Virus record (IMG/VR): IMGVR_UViG_3300029263_000582
Length of the DNA: 44,692 nucleotides
Strand: one strand, 5' to 3'
Source of the DNA: a virus
Shown: piece after piece, positions 8,710 to 22,326 of the stretch
Numbering within the stretch: position 1 is the first letter of the stretch
How the letters are laid out: every line of letters begins with the position of its first letter
The notes under the pieces: model-generated
Told to the model about the DNA's origin: nothing
What the model saw: only the letters and a program-made list of their open reading frames with translations
The model's database searches: none
Position numbers and translations under genes: made by a program

Positions 8710-9192
8710 ATGTCAACTTTCAAAACTAAACTCGCAGCATTCCGCCGTTCAGGTCTATCACAACGTGATAACTTACAAGAGCTGGTTCAAATGGCTATGA
8801 CTCACGCTCAAGAGAACCAAGACGAGTTCACCCAGCTGTCACAAGTGATGGCTACTACGGTTGAGATTAAATCATTCCGTACTGCTACGCTTAAAGATTA
8901 CATCAAAGAGCACGTGACTAACGTGACGTACACTAAGAACAAAGCTGGTGAGTTCATGTTCAAGAAAGAGGTAAAAGGTACACCGTGTGAGTACAAGACA
9001 CTTGAAACTAAGTGGTACGACTTCGACAACAAAGGTCAAGCGACTGCTGATATTGACGTACTAGCACAAGCTAAGGCGTTACTGTCACGTATCAACAAAG
9101 GTATGGCTGGTACTGGTACTGCTAAGATTAAGGAAGGGCAGGAGAAAGCTGCTCAGGACTTACAAGCTGCACTTGCTAAGCTTACTGCTTAA
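8710..9192 (+). CDS. Hypothetical early protein
   Basis: 160-aa ORF with an AAGGAAAA RBS. It is the first ORF of the plus arm. A GCCCTG-ctagt-CAGGGC hairpin (9212-9228) follows it. No family recognised. Confidence 0.7.
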   Translation: MSTFKTKLAAFRRSGLSQRDNLQELVQMAMTHAQENQDEFTQLSQVMATTVEIKSFRTATLKDYIKEHVTNVTYTKNKAGEFMFKKEVKGTPCEYKTLETKWYDFDNKGQATADIDVLAQAKALLSRINKGMAGTGTAKIKEGQEKAAQDLQAALAKLTA

Positions 9193-9245
9193 GCGCAGGT
9201 CTAAGACTAACGCCCTGCTAGTCAGGGCAATCTAAGGAGATTCTA

Positions 9246-9491
9246 ATGACAGCTAGAGAGAGGTTCGGTATACCTGATACATACCCTAAGGATACGCACT
9301 TAACTAACTGGCTTAAGAAAAACCTTATGCCTACGTTACTTGGTGCATTCATTGACGACAAGGATTCACGTGGCACTATCACTAAGACCTCGGTTAACGT
9401 TGGTGATAGGGACGTGCTTCTCTGTATGGAAGAGGGTCACGTTATCCGTATGCGTTCAAGTGAATGGCTTGACTTCGAGAAGATTAACTAG
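9246..9491 (+). CDS. Hypothetical early protein
   Basis: 81-aa ORF preceded by AGGAGATTCTAATG. The same 14-mer precedes the next ORF. Confidence 0.7.
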   Translation: MTARERFGIPDTYPKDTHLTNWLKKNLMPTLLGAFIDDKDSRGTITKTSVNVGDRDVLLCMEEGHVIRMRSSEWLDFEKIN

Positions 9492-10899: not shown

Positions 10900-11107
10900 A
10901 GGTAAGCAGCTATTCATTACGATGCTTACGTTAGTAAGCTTATCCGTTCTGTCAGTAGTAGCTAAGTACGTACTACTTTCTTTATTCATTTTACTTATTA
11001 CTTATTACTTCTTTCATCTCTTGTGAGCATATCTTATATAAGTTTTACGAAAGTCTCTTTATCTTCTAGCAGATTTCTAAGAGATTTCTAAATACCCTCT
11101 AGTATTG

Positions 11108-12929: not shown

Positions 12930-14182
12930 TGTGTGGATTAGTAGCAGCGTTCGGTAATCTGAACGCAACAAGTAAGAAAATATTCGAGCAGCTTTTACAG
13001 GTTGATGTTATCCGTGGTAAGCACAGCACTGGTGTGTTCGGTGACGGTGGTGCAACGTACAAGAAAGCTTTAAGTGCGACTGAGTTCCTTGAGCTTAGTA
13101 AAGCTAAGAGTATTATCAGTGACAGTACGTCTATGTTAGTAGGTCATAACCGCCATGCTACTGTAGGGGCAGTGAACGACGTTAATGCCCACCCGTTTAC
13201 TCACGGTGACATAACCCTAGTGCATAACGGCACGTTAACTGACCAAGACTTACTACCTGATAGCAAGGACTTCCTTGTTGACTCAGAGAATATCTGTCAT
13301 GCAGTTAACAAGCTAGGTGCTAAGGCTGCCTTCGAGGTAACAGAGGGAGCTTATGCATGTATCTGGCACGATGCATCTAACGATACACTTAGTGTAGTAC
13401 GCAACGCTGAACGTCCTCTCTGGTACGTTCAAGTACAGGGCGGGCCTATGTACATAGGTTCAGAGCGTGAGATGTTGCTCTGGATTCTTATGAAGAACAA
13501 GATAACATTCAGTGGTGACTACAAGGATTACTTCATAGAAGTCCCTGAGTGTGAGATAATAACCTTTAAGAAACAAGGCACTAGGGTTAAAGAGGTAAGT
13601 CGTACACCCTTTGATGAGTGCCTCTCGTGGAAAGCATGGGGTCGTTACGACGGCTATGGTTCCTACAGTACCAAGGTTAAGACTGTTGACCCTATCGAGA
13701 AGTACCTAGGTCTTAAGGTTAAAGACCCTGCTAAGGTACTGGTGCAGGCTAATACCTTCAAGGCTTACAGTACACATAACCCTAACTCTTTAGGTTATGC
13801 TCTAGGTCGTATGACTTCTTACCCTTATAACCGATGCAAGGTTTATAACTTAACGGAGCCAGAAGAGGACTCTTACTTTAACGTAGAGGTAGGCGCTCTT
13901 GATTTATTCCATATAAACAAGGACGTTAACCCTGAGCTTAACCCTCAGAAGTTAATCGTTAGTTGTTATAACCCTGTTAAGTGCGAGGAAGAAGAACACT
14001 CTTGCATTAACTGCGGTACTAGTATCACTGAACACACGGTTAACCTTACTAATGTACGTGAGGTAGACGGTGAACTTATCTGTGAGAACTGCTGGTCTAA
14101 CGACAGCACAGTAGTTGATATGTTCCCTATTAATGAACCAGTTAATATTATTAAATCATTAGAAGACTTGGAGGCTGTATGA
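12929..14182 (+). CDS. Class-II (Ntn) glutamine amidotransferase-domain protein with C-terminal zinc ribbon
   Basis: MCGLVAAFG (catalytic Cys2), GHNRHATVG, NAHPF and VHNGTL are GATase type 2 motifs. The C-terminus carries CINCG...CENCW. Confidence 0.8.
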   Translation: MCGLVAAFGNLNATSKKIFEQLLQVDVIRGKHSTGVFGDGGATYKKALSATEFLELSKAKSIISDSTSMLVGHNRHATVGAVNDVNAHPFTHGDITLVHNGTLTDQDLLPDSKDFLVDSENICHAVNKLGAKAAFEVTEGAYACIWHDASNDTLSVVRNAERPLWYVQVQGGPMYIGSEREMLLWILMKNKITFSGDYKDYFIEVPECEIITFKKQGTRVKEVSRTPFDECLSWKAWGRYDGYGSYSTKVKTVDPIEKYLGLKVKDPAKVLVQANTFKAYSTHNPNSLGYALGRMTSYPYNRCKVYNLTEPEEDSYFNVEVGALDLFHINKDVNPELNPQKLIVSCYNPVKCEEEEHSCINCGTSITEHTVNLTNVREVDGELICENCWSNDSTVVDMFPINEPVNIIKSLEDLEAV

Positions 14183-15378
14183 CAGCACGTTACGAAGAGA
14201 AGAAAGCAATCGAAGACGTACAGGTAGGTGACTTAGTACGTATCAATGACACCTGCTGGGAACCTAATAAAGTATACCTAGAAGGTAGAGGTGTGCCTCA
14301 GGTGTTCCCTGTTGTGGGGTTAAGCGGTCGCTCATCTCTAGAGGCTGCAACTACGGATAATGGAGGTAGACAGGGTATCTTTAAGAGCTACCTTGAGCAC
14401 TACCCTCGTCGTATCATAGAGAGTAACAATGACTTCGAGGTAGGTGACCGTGTTGTTATTAGGGAGGACTCTCGTTACTACGGTATAAATCGTCTTAACC
14501 CTGATAACTCAGTGCAGGGTGAGATAAGTTACGTAGGGGGTCACCTGATTGTGCAGTGGGGTAACATAGGGACTAACAGTTATCAGTACCACGACCTTGA
14601 GTTAGTGCAGTACATACAATCTGCACCTGAGAAAGAGAACAAGACAGAAGCTATCGATGGTATCTTATTCGGCTCAGACCTTGAGCTGTTCGTAGTAGAT
14701 ACACGTACTGATAAGGTTGTCCCTGCTGGTATGCTAGTACCGGGTACTAAAGATACACCTTTCAAGATGAAGACAGGTACAGTACACCCTGATGGTCTAG
14801 CAGTAGAGGTAGGCTGTGACCCTGCTAGTACGTGGACTGAACTGAACAAGAGCCTTGAGGCTATCCTCGCTGAGGTTAAGGCTGAGTTCTTCCCTGAGGA
14901 ATACTACGTGTACTCAGAGAAGTCAGTAGCTACTAAGGAGTGTATACAAGACTTCGAGAAGCATAGAGCTGAGCACCCTGAGTGGTTCATCTCAGGCTGT
15001 GCCCCTGAATTAGAGGCAGGTAAACTTACTTACAATAACGGCACACGTAGTGATGTTAACCCTAAGGAGAAGTTACGCTGCAAGGATAAGTTCTTTGTAG
15101 GTATGCACCTACACTTAGGCTTTACTGAGTGGGATAACACATGCTTTACTCGTATAGATGCTGGTGCTTTAGTAGAGAAAGCTCACGGTAAGGTATGGTT
15201 ACGTGATGAACAGGTAGGTAACGAACGTCAGCAGTACTACGGTGGTCGTAAGTGTTTCCGTATGAAACCTTATGGTGTAGAAGACCGATCTCTTGCAGGT
15301 CATACGTTCCTTAAGGATAAGCAAGTTATAGCTAAGCTAGCGTACGCTTATCAGTGCCTTATCAAGGAGGCTTTATGA
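14179..15378 (+). CDS. Carboxylate-amine (COOH-NH2) ligase, phage type 2-like, with two N-terminal SH3-like repeats
   Basis: GSDLELFVVD, VHPDGLAVEVGCDP and GMHLHLGF resemble the acidic metal-binding strands of GCS2-type ligases. The N-terminus has two repeats, VQVGDLVRIND and FEVGDRVVIRED. The family call is from memory. Confidence 0.55.
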   Translation: MTARYEEKKAIEDVQVGDLVRINDTCWEPNKVYLEGRGVPQVFPVVGLSGRSSLEAATTDNGGRQGIFKSYLEHYPRRIIESNNDFEVGDRVVIREDSRYYGINRLNPDNSVQGEISYVGGHLIVQWGNIGTNSYQYHDLELVQYIQSAPEKENKTEAIDGILFGSDLELFVVDTRTDKVVPAGMLVPGTKDTPFKMKTGTVHPDGLAVEVGCDPASTWTELNKSLEAILAEVKAEFFPEEYYVYSEKSVATKECIQDFEKHRAEHPEWFISGCAPELEAGKLTYNNGTRSDVNPKEKLRCKDKFFVGMHLHLGFTEWDNTCFTRIDAGALVEKAHGKVWLRDEQVGNERQQYYGGRKCFRMKPYGVEDRSLAGHTFLKDKQVIAKLAYAYQCLIKEAL

Positions 15379-15662
15379 TTGAGATAAGACGTGAGGGTTG
15401 CAGGGGAGGGCGCTTCAACGTTGGTAACTACGGATGGGAGGGAGGGGCTAGCGATGTTGTCTACCTCCCCGATTCCTCTCTGACACGAGAGGGGGAGAGG
15501 GTTGTGCGTATCTCAGGTAAGTATTTAGGGAGCCACTTCGGTAACGGACCTAGCTACGAAATGCTAAAGACTCACGTTCGTATAGTACCTGAACTCCCTT
15601 TAAACCAAGTAATAGGTATCCCCTCATTAAAGGGTATGATATTCGGAGACGATGATGCGTAG
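15375..15662 (+). CDS. Small acidic-tailed protein, paralogue 1 of 3 (MIE...YLPD...PELPLNQVIGIPSLKG.IF)
   Basis: I prefer the ATG at 15375 (AAGGAGG RBS, ATGA overlap with the upstream stop). 95 aa ending in PELPLNQVIGIPSLKGMIFGDDDA. Confidence 0.75.
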   Translation: MIEIRREGCRGGRFNVGNYGWEGGASDVVYLPDSSLTREGERVVRISGKYLGSHFGNGPSYEMLKTHVRIVPELPLNQVIGIPSLKGMIFGDDDA

Positions 15663-17335: not shown

Positions 17336-17783
17336 AGGGAAGGGTATCAGTATTCATGATGACCCTAGTACACTACAGCCCGCACCTTTGTACGTTCGGT
17401 ACATCCCTAAGACTCAGGAGTACAGAGTACATGTTGTTAAGGGCAAGGTGATTGACGTACAACGTAAGGCACGTAGCTCTGATACACCTGACGAGGATGT
17501 TAACTGGCAGGTACGTAATCATAAGAACGGCTTTATCTTTATGAGGGAAGGGGTAACACCTGACTCAGTACCTGAACAGGTAATACTTAACAGCTTAGAA
17601 AGTATGCGTCTTCTAGGTCTTGACTTCGGTGCAGTAGATATTATCTGGAACCAACAGCACGATAAGGCGTACGTCCTTGAGGTTAATACCTCACCTGGTA
17701 TGACAGGGACAACACTTGATAAGTACTGCGAGGCTTTCCAAGCAGTACATGATAACACAGAGATAGGAGGTTGGTATGTTTAA
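16977..17783 (+). CDS. RimK-like ATP-grasp ligase
   Basis: AAGAGGA RBS with a stop just before the ATG. N-terminal pre-ATP-grasp region (VINLGRS, LNKPDSVKNAQNKLLTF), then EYRVHVVKGKVIDVQRK, NHKNGFIF, LDFGAVDIIWN and VLEVNTSPGM. Confidence 0.8.
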   Translation: MIYLTSWNNGKTARELSRRLSPLKGRLLRPEGSRLRRLASQGQHLVINLGRSAIYSTSMTLNKPDSVKNAQNKLLTFQCLADSQETLIPEHYVTLETAFQAMIDNPTWKIVQRTLLRGSEGKGISIHDDPSTLQPAPLYVRYIPKTQEYRVHVVKGKVIDVQRKARSSDTPDEDVNWQVRNHKNGFIFMREGVTPDSVPEQVILNSLESMRLLGLDFGAVDIIWNQQHDKAYVLEVNTSPGMTGTTLDKYCEAFQAVHDNTEIGGWYV

Positions 17784-18195
17784 GTTCAGGGTAGGCGACA
17801 AGGTACGTAAGATTTCTAATGGCACAAGTAATTACCCGATAGGCTACGAGGGTGTTGTAAATAAAGCAGGCGTTAACTGTCTCTACGTAGATGGGAAGGG
17901 AGCTAGCACCCGAGCAGTCTATTGGGAACTGGTAGAAGACAAAGCTAAGTACCCTAACGGTAAGCACCCACACCATGATATAATCCTTGAGTACGCTAAG
18001 GGTGCTGAGCTAGAGTTCTTTAGTACCTCAGTGAATGCATGGCGAAATGTCCTATCCCCTGCTTTTGCGAAGGACACCCTGTACCGAGTCAAGCCTCAGC
18101 AAGACCCTGCTGTACAGGCTGCTAAGAAGAAGATAGAACAGGCGGAGCAGATGCTTCGTGAAGCTAACGATGAACTGGATAGGCTAGGACTATGA
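17776..18195 (+). CDS. Hypothetical protein with N-terminal SH3-like VGD.VR.I repeat
   Basis: 139 aa. FRVGDKVRKISN resembles the repeats at the N-terminus of ORF 14179. Confidence 0.65.
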   Translation: MFKFRVGDKVRKISNGTSNYPIGYEGVVNKAGVNCLYVDGKGASTRAVYWELVEDKAKYPNGKHPHHDIILEYAKGAELEFFSTSVNAWRNVLSPAFAKDTLYRVKPQQDPAVQAAKKKIEQAEQMLREANDELDRLGL

Positions 18196-18675: not shown

Positions 18676-19615
18676 TGGCTGGTGTACAGATAGATAGTAT
18701 ACCTCATTCCTGTGGAGGTAGTACTAAGGTCTTCGATGACCAAGGTAAGATAACAGGGTACTGCTTCAGCTGTGGTACGTTCGACCCTGACCCTTATAAA
18801 GATAAGCCCGAAGGGTACAAGCCACCTGAACCTAAGCGTCAGTCAGCTGAGGATATACAGGAAAAGATTAATGAAATCAAAGAGCTAACAACTGTTGATG
18901 ACACAGCCCGTAAGCTAGGAGCTAAGTCCCTTGGTTACTTCGGTATCAAGACTCAGCTCAGTGAGTACGACGGCTCAACAATCACAGCTAAGTTCTACCC
19001 TTATACAACTGACGGTGTGCTGACTGCATGGAAGTGCAAGACTCACGACAAGAAGTTCTTTAGTATAGGAGACATGAAGAACTGTGACCCATTCGGTTGG
19101 GAGCAGGCGATGCGTTCCGATAACTACACCCTGTTCATAACAGAGGGAGAGGATGACGCGGCTGCTTTACTTAAAGCCTTGATGCCTAACTGGAACAAGG
19201 ATAAACCTCCTGCTATTATCAGTACATCCTCTGGTGCAACAGGGGTTAAGAGTATTACTCGACGTGCTGATACTATTAACCGTAGGTTCAAGCAGGTAGT
19301 ACTGGTCTTCGACCAAGATGATGCAGGTGCAGCAGGGGCAAGGAAGGTAGCAGGTCTCTTAGAGAACTGCAAGGCAGCATCCTTTGAACTCAAGGACGCT
19401 AACGACATGGTCAAGGCAGGGCGAGGCGACGAGCTAGCTAAGGCTGTGATGTACGAAGGTAAGCCTATGGTATCAGGTAAGTGCGTCCGCTCTTCTGATG
19501 CATGGCACTTAGCTGAGGCTAAGGTAGAGTGGGGGCTTGACTGGCCTTGGCCTACGATGACAGAGAAGACACGAGGACGACGACGAGGGGAGGTGTATTA
19601 CTTCGGCTCCGGTGT
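18675..19615 (+). CDS. Primase-helicase (T7 gp4-like), exon 1
   Basis: Zinc-finger cysteines (HSCGG...CFSCG). TOPRIM motifs FITEGEDDAAAL and VLVFDQDDAG. The ORF runs into the helicase P-loop (EVYYFGSGV) and then hits a stop inside the intron. Confidence 0.85.
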
Positions 19616-19926
19616 TTGTAATTAAGCATCATTCAACCGTGAGGTTGTCTAAAGAACTACGTGAACTCAGGGGAACTCTAGAACAGACAATCCTGAGCGA
19701 AGCCTTGAGATTAGTTTTATGTAGGAAAACAGTAAGACACCTTACACATAAGTAAAGGTTCTAATCTAAGGAACGTGCAACGACTATCCCGTAAGGGAGT
19801 ACACTCAAGTGAGTGGAAGCGCGTAGCCCTCAGAAATGAGGTGATGATATAGTCTAGTCTGCATGGGGACATGCAGCAGTTCATAAGAGAACGGGCTAGG
19901 AGTAACGACCCTAGTCGAATGTAACG
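19616..19926 (+). ncRNA. Group I intron 1 (ORF-less, resembles the T4 td intron, 311 nt)
   Basis: P1: 19611-GGUGUUU pairs with AAGCAUC-19630, with a U19615.G19626 wobble. GGGGAAC...AGACAAUCC core. P7: GACUAU (19782-87) with AUAGUC (19849-54) inside GAUAUAGUC. CUGCAUG-GGGA-CAUGCAG hairpin (19859-76). Terminal G at 19926. Stops in all frames. Confidence 0.8.
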
Positions 19927-20449
19927 AAAAATGGGTAAGAGTGTAGTAGTTGACCAGATGGCTGCGTTCTTTGCAGCTACTCAGGATACACCTGTTATGC
20001 TAGTCAAGCCAGAAGAGTCAGTACCTAATACCCTTAAGCGTCTAGCTGGTAAGGCTGCACGTAAGGTGCTATGGGACCCGAAGGTTCCTTATGAGAAAGA
20101 GGACTTCGATAAAGGTAAAGCTATCATCGGCAGTAACGCTATAGTCTTTGACTCCTATCAGGAGATACGGTGGGCTGACGTTAAGAAAGAGATACGTACT
20201 AACGTAGAGGTATGCGGTGTAAAGGATGTGTTCCTTGACCCACTGACCTGTTTCACAGTAGGTATGCCTATGTCAGTAGCTAACGAAGAGCTTATCAGTA
20301 TAGCCTCAGAGATAGCTACTATGGCTAAGGAGCTGGACTTCACAGCTTACTTGTTCTGTCACCTTAACGCCCCTCAGTCAGGGCTACCTCACGAACGTGG
20401 TGGTGCAGTACAGAGTCAACAGTTCAGTGGCTCACGAGCTATGATGCGT
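19927..20449 (+). CDS. Primase-helicase, exon 2
   Basis: The junction gives ...FGSGV-KMGKSVVVDQ (P-loop). Walker B-like DVFLDPLT, then FCHLN and FSGSRAMMR. It ends on U20449. Confidence 0.85.
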
Positions 20450-20682
20450 CAAAGGCGCATGTAAAACCAATCTAATTCAGGGAAACCCTATCAGAAATGA
20501 GGGCAATCCTGAGCGAAGCCTTAACAGGAACGTGCAGAGACTATCGAAAGCAGAAGGTTAACACCTGAGAAGTGAGTAGAGTAGGGACGACAGGAGTTAT
20601 CCCGAAACGGTTGGGCTACGAGAGTAGCGTGATATAGTCCGATACTTGTAGTAATACAAGACGTAAGGATACTAACATATTG
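20450..20682 (+). ncRNA. Group I intron 2 (ORF-less, 233 nt)
   Basis: P1: 20444-AUGCGU pairs with GCGCAU-20460, with a U20449.G20455 wobble. It shares the CAAUCCUGAGCGAAGCCUU core with intron 1. P7: GACUAU (20539-44) with AUAGUC (20634-39). GCUAC-GAGA-GUAGC and CUUGUA-GUAA-UACAAG tetraloop hairpins. Terminal G at 20682. Confidence 0.8.
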
Positions 20683-20874
20683 TTTTGCCATCAGATGTGG
20701 GGACTAGAGGGTAACAAAGACCCTGACTTACCTGATGAACTACGTAACTGCCGTGACTTAGTGCTCCTAGAAGACCGTAACTTCGGCGAGTCAGGTCGTA
20801 TTAAGATGCAGTACCATTCAACTACAGGTTGCCTTGAAGAGATGCAGCCTAACTTTGGAGAGCACGATGATTGA
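20683..20874 (+). CDS. Primase-helicase, exon 3
   Basis: The junction SGSRAMMR-FCHQMWGLEGNKD aligns from memory with T7 gp4 [21 protein letters not shown]. Exons total 1656 nt, giving 551 aa in frame. Confidence 0.8.
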   Translation, partial: FCHQMWGLEGNKDPDLPDELRNCRDLVLLEDRNFGESGRIKMQYHSTTGCLEEMQPNFGEHDD

Positions 20875-21124
20875 ACTACTAGACGAGGACGACTACGGCT
20901 ATGAAGAAGGAGTTAGCTTCCCTATATACTTACCAGACTGTGCTCTACGAGCAGAGGGGGATGTCTTTATTGAGGTCGCAGGAGAGGCGCTTGGGGAGTT
21001 CTTCGAGAGAGAAGATACTTACCCCTTCCGTGTAAGAAGCGCTCGTATAGTACCAGAGCTACCTCTTAACCAAGTAATAGGCATCCCCTCGTTAAAGGGT
21101 AGGATATTTGGAGAACAAGAATGA
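20867..21124 (+). CDS. Small acidic-tailed protein, paralogue 2 of 3
   Basis: ATG at 20867 inside ATGATTGA, which overlaps the helicase stop. MIELLDEDDYGYEEGVSFPIYLPDC...PELPLNQVIGIPSLKGRIFGEQE. Confidence 0.75.
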   Translation: MIELLDEDDYGYEEGVSFPIYLPDCALRAEGDVFIEVAGEALGEFFEREDTYPFRVRSARIVPELPLNQVIGIPSLKGRIFGEQE

Positions 21125-21783
21125 CAGAAGTAGAGAGTAAGTTCCCTACCGTAATAACACCTGAGGTATTCAGCTCCTTGTACGAGACACTAGAGAAGGA
21201 TGTCCTCTGGTTCTGTGGCAACAAGGGTATACCTGCTGATGATAGACCTGATGTCTTTCATGACTGCATGGAGAAAGTATGGGCTGACCGTGAGATGTTC
21301 ACTCGTATGGGTAACGGTCGTTCTCCTGCTACCTTTATGTACCTTAAGTTACGTACAGCAGTAATGGAGTACTTTAACTGGGTTAACACAGGGACTAAGT
21401 CAGGTAACACACAGTCCAAGGTTAAGATTAATACGTACCTTAACTCTTACGAAGAGATGTTCCTAGGTTACACTGACTCAGACCAAGACACTAGCAGCTC
21501 TCTTAGTCTACAGTACGAGCAGCTTGAACCTCTGAACGTAGGGTACGCTGAGGTCTTTAAGATACTTGATAAGATGCCTGACCTTCTACGAGAGTACGTA
21601 GTCTGTAAGGCTGAGGTAGATACAGGCGGTACTAACAGCTCACGTAAGGAACTAACAGCCCTTATGTTAGAGCGTGGGCTACCAGTACGAATGCGTAACG
21701 AAGTCTCTAAGTTCCCTACAGTAGATGCTTATGAGTCAAGACTTCGTACGTTCTTAACATCTAAGGAGATACGGAATGATTGA
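21121..21783 (+). CDS. Possible sigma-70-family (ECF-like) transcription factor
   Basis: 220 aa. DVFHDCMEKVWADREMF...ATFMYLKLRTAVMEYF resembles sigma region 2. MPDLLREYVV...VDAYESRLRTFL resembles region 4. SKFPTV occurs at both ends. The motif match is weak and from memory. Confidence 0.35.
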   Translation: MTEVESKFPTVITPEVFSSLYETLEKDVLWFCGNKGIPADDRPDVFHDCMEKVWADREMFTRMGNGRSPATFMYLKLRTAVMEYFNWVNTGTKSGNTQSKVKINTYLNSYEEMFLGYTDSDQDTSSSLSLQYEQLEPLNVGYAEVFKILDKMPDLLREYVVCKAEVDTGGTNSSRKELTALMLERGLPVRMRNEVSKFPTVDAYESRLRTFLTSKEIRND

Positions 21784-22030
21784 GCTTAAGAGTAATCAGT
21801 CTTGGGGGTTCGAGGTTGGAACTAAATTCCCTGTGTACCTCCCTGATTGTGCAGTAGTAGAGAAGGATAGCAGGATGTCTTATATATTAGGAGAGTTCTT
21901 AGGCAGATGCTTCGCACCGACAGAGGTGTACGGTTTTACAAACGACCAGCTAAGAGTTGCCCCTGAACTGCCCCTTAACCACGTCATCGGCATACCATCG
22001 TTAGAAGGTAAGATATTCGAGGAGGATTAA
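21776..22030 (+). CDS. Small acidic-tailed protein, paralogue 3 of 3
   Basis: ATGATTGA overlap with the upstream stop. MIELKSNQSWGFEVGTKFPVYLPDC...PELPLNHVIGIPSLEGKIFEED. Confidence 0.75.
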   Translation: MIELKSNQSWGFEVGTKFPVYLPDCAVVEKDSRMSYILGEFLGRCFAPTEVYGFTNDQLRVAPELPLNHVIGIPSLEGKIFEED

Positions 22031-22326
22031 TGAATTGCGATTTAATAACCGAGTATTCCACGGGAAGTAGAAAGATACTATTCCAAAGGCTTGTAATGTA
22101 TAACAAGGTTGTTGCTGAGTACCAAGGAACTTGGTGCGAGCTGTTCAGCACAACCTCTTACAAACGGCTTAAGTGTACTGAAGAGAAACTTAAAATGGAT
22201 ATAACAAAACGACTGACTGCTATTTACAACGCTCCTGTTTATGTAGAGTTCAGGGGGTCTAGGTACAAGGACGACGTGTTACTTAAGAGGAAACAAAAGT
22301 TCTTAGTAATTAAGAAGGAGAGCTAA
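22030..22326 (+). CDS. Hypothetical basic protein
   Basis: 98-aa ORF, A+T-richer than its neighbours, coupled on both sides (TAATG overlaps). Confidence 0.6.
   Translation: MNCDLITEYSTGSRKILFQRLVMYNKVVAEYQGTWCELFSTTSYKRLKCTEEKLKMDITKRLTAIYNAPVYVEFRGSRYKDDVLLKRKQKFLVIKKES

Follow-up and report, generated by a model that had tools for sequence, protein, structure and literature searches.

A family of small proteins with a constant C-terminal tail and variable heads at three gene junctions of Pseudoalteromonas phage PSA-HP1

The stretch of viral DNA analyzed here ("the window"; IMG/VR record IMGVR_UViG_3300029263_000582; 44,692 nucleotides (nt)) is that of Pseudoalteromonas phage PSA-HP1, with window coordinates equal to the published PSA-HP1 coordinates plus 1662. 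At three gene junctions it carries the open reading frames (ORFs) 15375-15662, 20867-21124 and 21776-22030, all on the forward strand. We find that these are true paralogs, belonging to a real, expressed and narrowly distributed ORFan family in which a variable head is followed by an almost invariant C-terminal tail. We document the anatomy of this family, the pattern of selection on it, its expression and the dynamics of its sites in the genome. As to what it does, we tentatively favor the possibility that its members are dispensable adaptors, in which a constant docking peptide would be combined with exchangeable heads. The constant-tail, variable-head design is unusually clean and the junction dynamics are well resolved, but on present evidence the family is not a new kind of system.

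Compared end to end, the three copies are 43-51% identical and have 32 alignment columns without any change, and pairwise BLASTP comparisons among them give E = 8e-22 and 3e-27, so that the grouping into one family, first proposed in a first-pass annotation made from the letters of the window, is borne out. The motifs listed there are all present in the three copies, in the forms YGWEGG/YGYEEG/WGFEVG and VVYLPDS/PIYLPDC/PVYLPDC, with the tails ending in GDDDA/GEQE/EED. Copy 1 (PSAHP1_00044; 95 residues; site 1), whose protein matches one from Pseudoalteromonas phage HP1 with 100% identity, follows the COOH-NH2 ligase gene. Copy 2 (PSAHP1_00053; 85 residues; site 2) follows the last primase/helicase exon, and copy 3 (PSAHP1_00055; 84 residues; site 3) follows a sigma-like ORF, the upstream genes being those already named in the first-pass annotation. 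Its statement that each copy starts in an overlap with the upstream stop holds for all three, with one refinement: at copy 1 the upstream gene ends at the first TGA (an ATGA overlap, 15376-15378), while at copies 2 and 3 it ends at the second TGA of ATGATTGA (ATT-GA, 20872-20874 and 21781-21783). Because the upstream gene stops at this second TGA, sites 2 and 3 admit only ATT as the isoleucine codon of the start region, and at site 1 in relatives it is ATA, ATC or ATT. The window contains the string ATGATTGA five times, where 0.73 occurrences would be expected; the family starts make up three of them, and the remaining two lie within large late genes. A Shine-Dalgarno sequence stands 4-7 nt before each family start (AAGGAGG, GGAGAG and AAGGAG). 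The packing is equally tight at the other end, where the final 11 nt of copy 1 overlap the start of the next ORF (15652), the stop of copy 2 overlaps the start of the sigma-like gene (ATGA) and the stop of copy 3 runs straight into the next start (TAATG).

In an alignment of 28 family members, the first ~60 residues are variable and keep few core positions (MIE, aromatic-x-E-x-G, YLPD and G..LG..F), while the final ~22 residues are almost invariant (R-I/V-V/A-P-E-L-P-L-N-Q/H-V-I-G-I-P-S-L-E/K-G-x-I/V-F). The head and the constant tail lie at 15375-15578 and 15579-15644 (RIVPELPLNQVIGIPSLKGMIF) in copy 1, at 20867-21043 and 21044-21109 (RIVPELPLNQVIGIPSLKGRIF) in copy 2, and at 21776-21952 and 21953-22018 (RVAPELPLNHVIGIPSLEGKIF) in copy 3, where the EED tip, encoded by GAGGAGGAT, comes directly after. 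The head of copy 1 is basic (isoelectric point 9.0) and holds a nine-residue insert specific to site-1 copies; the head of copy 2 is acidic (4.1), and that of copy 3, which occupies the most variable site between close relatives, has an isoelectric point of 4.6. AlphaFold2 models residues 1-60 of copy 2 as six beta strands with a predicted local distance difference test (pLDDT) score >90, after which the block means fall to 65 (residues 61-70), 48 (71-80) and 46 (81-85). In the copy 1 model the strands follow in the same order and most of the head is at pLDDT 70-87; its tail (residues 77-95, except residue 90) is below 50, and the site-1 insert is also of low confidence. On these models, each copy is predicted to consist of a ~60-residue SH3-like beta-barrel head and a 22-residue C-terminal peptide. 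We read the low confidence of the tail as disorder, and the coincidence of the best-conserved part with the part not modeled as folded is typical of a short linear docking motif.

Comparisons of fold and motif add some detail to this picture. Foldseek against PDB places the head nearest to SH3 domains and the HIV integrase C-terminal domain, and also Tudor, although these matches are weak (E of at least 0.4, template-modeling (TM) score 0.35-0.45). Against BFVD, weak matches are found to small uncharacterized proteins of T4-like phages. The best fold matches to the head are two such SH3-like proteins, Q76ZG7 of RB49 and A0A2K9VNT9 of Shigella phage Sf20, with a query-normalized TM-score of 0.56-0.57 (target-normalized 0.56-0.72), a root-mean-square deviation of 2.2-2.5 Å and 20-24% identity, but with E only 0.05-0.08 and no matching tail. 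The tail motif appears in no other protein among 1.84 billion representative sequences, and a tail-only hidden Markov model (HMM) run against all six-frame ORFs of the window and of the related loci found no tail-like motif in other proteins. A loose resemblance of QVIGIP to MutL/Hda-type beta-clamp motifs was set aside, as its Q is not invariant.

The constraint on the tail acts on the protein and not on the DNA. In a set of 17 genes, taken from 8 genomes or contigs, the invariant tail residues are each encoded by three to five different synonymous codons (five for Leu76; TCA, TCC, TCT, TCG and AGC for Ser86), and synonymous divergence (dS) in the tail is 0.13-1.5, as high as in the flanks. 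The ratio of non-synonymous to synonymous rates (dN/dS), a comparison that the first-pass annotation had suggested, is 0.06-0.17 for the tail, which indicates strong purifying selection, and 0.3-0.8 for the head. Between closely related type-B copies, non-synonymous and synonymous differences number 9 and 0 in the head and 2 and 5 in the tail (Fisher p = 0.005). Synonymous divergence between the paralogs themselves is saturated or nearly so (dS >1), and the duplications are therefore old.

The acidic tips beyond the conserved block have a different origin and are a by-product of gene packing. GDDDA, GEQE and EED are encoded by GGAGACGATGATGCGTAG, GGAGAACAAGAATGA and GAGGAGGATTAATG, which are the Shine-Dalgarno and start of the downstream genes. 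The tips are site-specific (...GDDDA, ...GEQE/GEHE/GGQE and ...EED) and are not kept across sites, so that the C-terminal residue is Ala at site 1, Glu at site 2 and Asp at site 3. An acidic tip mimicking the T7 gp4/gp2.5 tails or the SSB tip was for the same reasons rejected as the primary explanation.

The heads are strikingly diverged between phages that are otherwise very similar. Upstream (150 nt) and in the downstream gene, the flanks are 90-100% identical, whereas the heads have 33-60% nucleotide identity; at all three sites identity drops a few codons past the start and returns at about +185 nt, which is the start of the tail. At the protein level, copy 3 has 54-57% amino-acid identity in four of five relatives, against 95-100% for the neighboring primase/helicase, sigma-like and polymerase proteins, and family members rank among the most diverged genes of the region. 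Two further genes there are also divergent between relatives: the COOH-NH2 ligase (14179-15378; 77-81% amino-acid identity, against 95-100% for replication genes) and a 139-residue ORF (17776-18195; 60-87%, with no match in contig L007), both of which hold motifs that look SH3/KOW-like, by eye only.

One relative, the metagenomic contig L012, provides a clear mosaic. Its site-2 copy has a site-2-type upstream flank, a head ~90% identical to the site-3 head of contig L003, and a final ~45 nt identical to the site-2 copy of the window, with one crossover at ATGATTGA and the other inside the tail-coding block. Heads are thus exchanged between slots and between phages, with the conserved ends serving as boundaries. 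As for a diversity-generating retroelement, the published gene list of the phage contains no reverse transcriptase, although no dedicated scan of the ORFs was made, and since the paralog heads are at or near synonymous saturation, none of them can serve as a retroelement template.

Occupancy of the three sites also varies. A family HMM was run against Pseudoalteromonas phage RIO-1 (Zobellviridae, Melvirus; ~90% nucleotide identity to the region), seven metagenomic contigs and KZY1, a complete Melvirus genome, a survey of related phages of the kind that the first-pass annotation had proposed. The sites considered were those after the COOH-NH2 ligase (1), the helicase (2) and the sigma-like gene (3). 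Across these 9 genomes or contigs the copy number runs from 0 to 3 and only these three fixed junctions are used. The remark that three dispersed copies are unusual is a matter of degree. All three sites are filled in HP1, L007, L011 and L012, and RIO-1 has sites 1 and 3 filled and site 2 empty. L008 retains site 1, with site 2 empty and a scar at site 3. L003 has site 2 empty and site 3 filled, site 1 lying off the contig. L005 (~75% nucleotide identity) has site 1 empty and site 2 filled, with site 3 hidden by a scaffold gap, a run of N at ~10912-11010 between the sigma-like gene and the DNA polymerase. All three sites are empty in KZY1; its ligase cassette, helicase, sigma-like gene and polymerase are the same, yet it contains no family copy. 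In KZY1 (L015 8360-10387; PQ867853.1 11854-13881), the gene that the record calls "RNA polymerase sigma factor" begins with MQPWVFDLEANGLLD and can be aligned to T7-like DNA polymerase, and the true sigma-like gene is the "hypothetical protein" directly upstream (L015 7707-8360). Contig L011 alone has an extra 83-residue ORF (9114-9365) between the site-2 copy and the sigma-like gene; it is unrelated to the family by HMM scan, and the sigma-like N-terminus is altered in keeping with the insertion.

Two junctions preserve traces of how copies may come and go. At site 3 of L008 (16330-16400), an eight-codon mini-ORF, ATGACTAGACTATTCGAGGAGGATTAA (MTRLFEED*), separates the sigma-like gene from the DNA polymerase and retains the ATGA start overlap, the final codons and the polymerase Shine-Dalgarno. 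It is the deletion scar of a site-3 copy, which indicates loss rather than gain. At site 2, a 14-nt direct repeat, TTTGGAGA(G/A)CA(C/A)GA, flanks copy 2. Its left arm (TTTGGAGAGCACGA, 20854-20867) encodes the helicase C-terminus FGEH(D) (NFGEHDD) and holds the Shine-Dalgarno of copy 2, and its right arm (TTTGGAGAACAAGA, 21107-21120) encodes the copy 2 tip FGEQE (IFGEQE) and holds the Shine-Dalgarno of the sigma-like gene. The right arm of L012 is identical to the empty site of RIO-1, from which it follows that loss or gain of copy 2 went through microhomology in the repeat.

In searches of public collections, the family is confined to RIO-1-like (Melvirus) phages. A profile search of 5.8 billion proteins gave 26 family clusters, and an exhaustive HMM search of the 1.84 billion representatives found six real family members; two long matches in the latter (P0028 and P0029) proved to be false positives, their sequences being repetitive or coiled-coil. 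A word-based search from the most divergent member (P0027) matched itself only. Scans of IMG/VR returned RIO-1 only, the JGI metagenome scan returned one near-identical contig, and no family member was found in GTDB bacterial genomes. The first-pass annotation had recognized no described family, and this stands: whether the query was a single protein, the family profile or just the tail peptide, sequence searches of Pfam, NCBIfam and PDB came back empty, and the one match is PHROG 29477, of unknown function, which all three copies match over whole proteins (E 1.5e-36, 7.4e-28 and 4.8e-28). PHROG 29477 is the same family and includes RIO-1 gp11 and gp20; its entry has no function, no domain description and no mention of paralogy or of a head/tail structure.

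Published time-course data show that the genes are active during infection. In Table S1 of Howard-Varona et al. (2020, PMC7082346), PSAHP1_00044 has an early-middle transcript and a middle-late protein, and PSAHP1_00053 and PSAHP1_00055 have middle transcripts and "Late 2" proteins, each gene being transcribed within the early-middle or middle operons; two other small ORFs are given as #N/A for protein. We read an assigned protein temporal cluster as protein detection, and hence all three copies as transcribed and translated, which answers the concern that the ORFs might not be translated. The same table labels PSAHP1_00053 (20867-21124) "Putative exonuclease" and its two paralogs "unknown function" (PMC7082346). 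Our Pfam, NCBIfam, PHROG, PDB and fold results give the exonuclease label no support.

Our favored though tentative reading is that the constant tail would be a short linear motif through which the protein docks on one conserved partner, encoded by the phage or by the host, and that the diversified heads would bind or neutralize variable targets. The proteins would then be adaptors that the phage can do without, active in host takeover or counter-defence in the replication phase. As for how the family changes, copies are lost by deletion between short repeats, and heads recombine between sites and phages through one crossover at the ATGATTGA start and another in the tail-coding block. Among the roles suggested in the first-pass annotation, that of an interchangeable adaptor fits best, given an invariant tail of low modeling confidence and hypervariable, folded heads that are exchanged between sites. 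A phage replication or transcription protein is a possible partner of the tail. Several points weigh against this reading: nothing ties the family to a defence system, and its position in the replication/transcription module would also fit a role outside any conflict. The variability of the heads could reflect relaxed constraint rather than an arms race, as head dN/dS is mostly <1 and the 9/0 pair alone is not significantly above neutrality, and the low confidence of the tail could stem from a shallow alignment (28 sequences) rather than from true disorder.

Known systems offer partial parallels. SspB-type adaptors combine a folded substrate-binding domain with a flexible tail that carries a short ClpX docking peptide; the architecture is alike, with a small folded domain followed by a tail predicted to be flexible in which the terminal peptide is best conserved, but no sequence or fold similarity to the family was found. 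The internal proteins IPI, IPII and IPIII of T4-type phages and the hyperplastic ip loci place a short conserved capsid-targeting sequence on hypervariable cargo, in several paralogs. They have in common with the PSA-HP1 family the constant short address peptide, the polymorphic bodies and the multiple copies whose number and alleles vary between close relatives. However, the T4 peptide is N-terminal, is cut by the prohead protease and sends cargo into the capsid, whereas the PSA-HP1 family peptide is C-terminal, and there is no sequence similarity. The family genes are early-middle and middle genes, not labeled structural in the PSA-HP1 table (PMC7082346). The RIO-1 virion paper does not mention RIO-1 gp11 and gp20.

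A bolder form of the adaptor idea, which we regard as fairly unlikely, is that of a recombination-diversified intracellular targeting system, in which an invariant C-terminal address peptide would tether changing SH3-like heads to a single conserved hub (replisome, RNA polymerase or a protease). The three slots would receive new heads from one another, with the conserved start and the tail-coding block as the crossover points, and the system would be an intracellular, C-terminal counterpart, for counter-defence, of the capsid targeting of T4 internal proteins. In a rarer and more radical variant, the tail would be the handle by which phage amidoligases modify or conjugate the proteins.

Other explanations assign the tail to particular partners. 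Copies 2 and 3 sit between the helicase, sigma-like and DNA polymerase genes and belong to the middle transcript class of those genes. The proteins could be replisome or transcription accessory subunits whose tail docks on the phage DNA polymerase, helicase or sigma-like factor, much as gp4 and gp2.5 of T7 use their C-terminal tails to dock on gp5, and whose heads merely tolerate change; the helicase end NFGEHDD does resemble the IFGEQE tip. We consider this rather unlikely, since KZY1 has the same three genes with no family member, L008 retains the site-1 copy only, and the FGE similarity falls in the recombination repeat and Shine-Dalgarno region, outside the conserved block; it is really a special case of the adaptor reading with a named partner. 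The proposal in the first-pass annotation that the proteins regulate their upstream partners is likewise disfavored, as the sites can be empty and the same head type follows the helicase or the sigma-like gene depending on the phage. As to the suggestion of a tag, copy 1 sits inside an amidoligase/ATP-grasp cassette, between the COOH-NH2 ligase, whose stop its start overlaps, and the Amidoligase_2/ATP-grasp genes, and the tail has acidic residues at its end and low model confidence. Flexible C-termini are the substrates of ATP-grasp enzymes of the RimK/LysX type and of carboxylate-amine ligases of the PafA type, the pairs being Pup with PafA, LysW with LysX and ribosomal protein S6 with RimK. 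Like the family members, Pup, LysW and S6 are small and have a flexible acidic C-terminus, and a ligase of that superfamily is encoded beside copy 1. The family might on this account be a tag, carrier or substrate of the cassette, with the COOH-NH2 ligase, Amidoligase_2 or ATP-grasp enzyme extending its C-terminus or ligating it. We think this very improbable, if conceivable for copy 1. Unlike in Pup, LysW and S6, the C-terminal residue is not conserved (A, E or D by site), the tips being encoded by the downstream Shine-Dalgarno and start, and the site-2 tip has the 14-nt repeat in common with the helicase C-terminus. There is no invariant ligation motif of the Pup or ubiquitin-like kind (GGQ/GGE, GG) and no conserved C-terminal Glu acceptor of the LysW/S6 kind, as the cassette (site-1) copies end in Ala and site-3 copies in Asp. 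Co-occurrence with a ligase is not obligate either, and outside this clade cassette and family do not occur together: L005 has the whole cassette with no site-1 copy, KZY1 has it and is devoid of family members, and of the 152 phage records that contain the ligase, 150 are without the family, the other two being RIO-1 records. Only one of the three copies is in the cassette; the other two belong to a later transcript cluster. A precursor of a graspetide or of another peptide that is made on the ribosome and modified post-translationally fits no better, because the N-terminal part is confidently predicted as a folded domain, the tail has either E or K at position 88 and any of K, M, R and V at position 90, where a precursor core would have conserved Ser/Thr/Lys and Asp/Glu partners, and a distance of 3-4 kb separates two of the copies from the ATP-grasp gene. 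The cassette itself was earlier called a peptidoglycan-modification cassette (PMC5498523).

The remaining explanations concern the DNA. A selfish mobile mini-cassette could spread between gene junctions, its ATGATTGA start giving stops in both other frames and so ending any upstream gene. Several features mentioned above agree with it, namely the presence/absence polymorphism at all three sites, the direct repeat around copy 2, the enrichment of ATGATTGA and the transfer of one head between sites, and to that extent the first-pass suggestion of a small mobile cassette caught something real. Mobility as such is nonetheless improbable. The ORFs of 84-95 residues have no catalytic-domain match and no associated nuclease, transposase or recombinase, the HNH genes of relatives being inside helicase introns and not beside family copies. 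Only three fixed junctions are used, the saturated paralogs point to old duplications, and the L008 scar records loss and not gain. The tail is under strong purifying selection in proteins that have published protein clusters, and the upstream stop accounts for the ATT codon at sites 2 and 3, the codon being able to vary at site 1. Finally, the conserved C-terminal block might be a nucleotide-level element (a promoter, RNA structure or recombination site) with the ORFs incidental, because copies 1 and 2 have a near-identical stretch of 40 nt in common, so that the nucleotide-level similarity noted in the first-pass annotation is real, and because the block is a recombination breakpoint. This is hardly credible. 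Synonymous-codon variation (up to five codons per invariant residue, with tail dS as in the flanks) rules out the block as a DNA or RNA element, no promoter- or terminator-like site in our scan coincides with it, apart from one weak hairpin (15356-15371) that contains the copy 1 Shine-Dalgarno, and all three copies have published protein clusters.

The surroundings of copies 2 and 3 hold further insertions. A 98-residue ORF (Pfam DUF7175, E 5e-16) lies at 22030-22326, between copy 3 and the DNA polymerase, as an insertion in PSA-HP1 only; site 3 adjoins the polymerase start in RIO-1, L003, L007, L008, L011 and L012. Upstream of copy 2, the primase/helicase gene consists of three exons split by two group I introns (Rfam RF00028) at 19606-19876 and 20380-20661, scoring 75.5 and 57.9 bits. 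The first intron corresponds to a 312-nt insertion (19616-19927) that is not in RIO-1, and its 3' part has 80-90% matches in many unrelated phages of Klebsiella, Pseudomonas, Acinetobacter and Erwinia. The second occupies the same position as the annotated RIO-1 intron, and HNH_3 genes are found inside the primase/helicase introns of L008 and L012.

Transcriptomes, proteomes and metabolomes resolved over time exist for PSA-HP1, a model marine phage in which these three expressed genes had lacked supported labels. Their junctions offer a nucleotide-level record of small accessory genes being lost, scarred and re-assorted in a lytic podovirus, and the heads mark a locus apparently under diversifying pressure between near-identical phages. 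The invariant 22-residue tail is a cheap and concrete experimental handle, a bait for the conserved hub that the phage may be targeting. If its partner is a host defence or a core machine, this would be a new adaptor family; if not, it is a tidy ORFan family.

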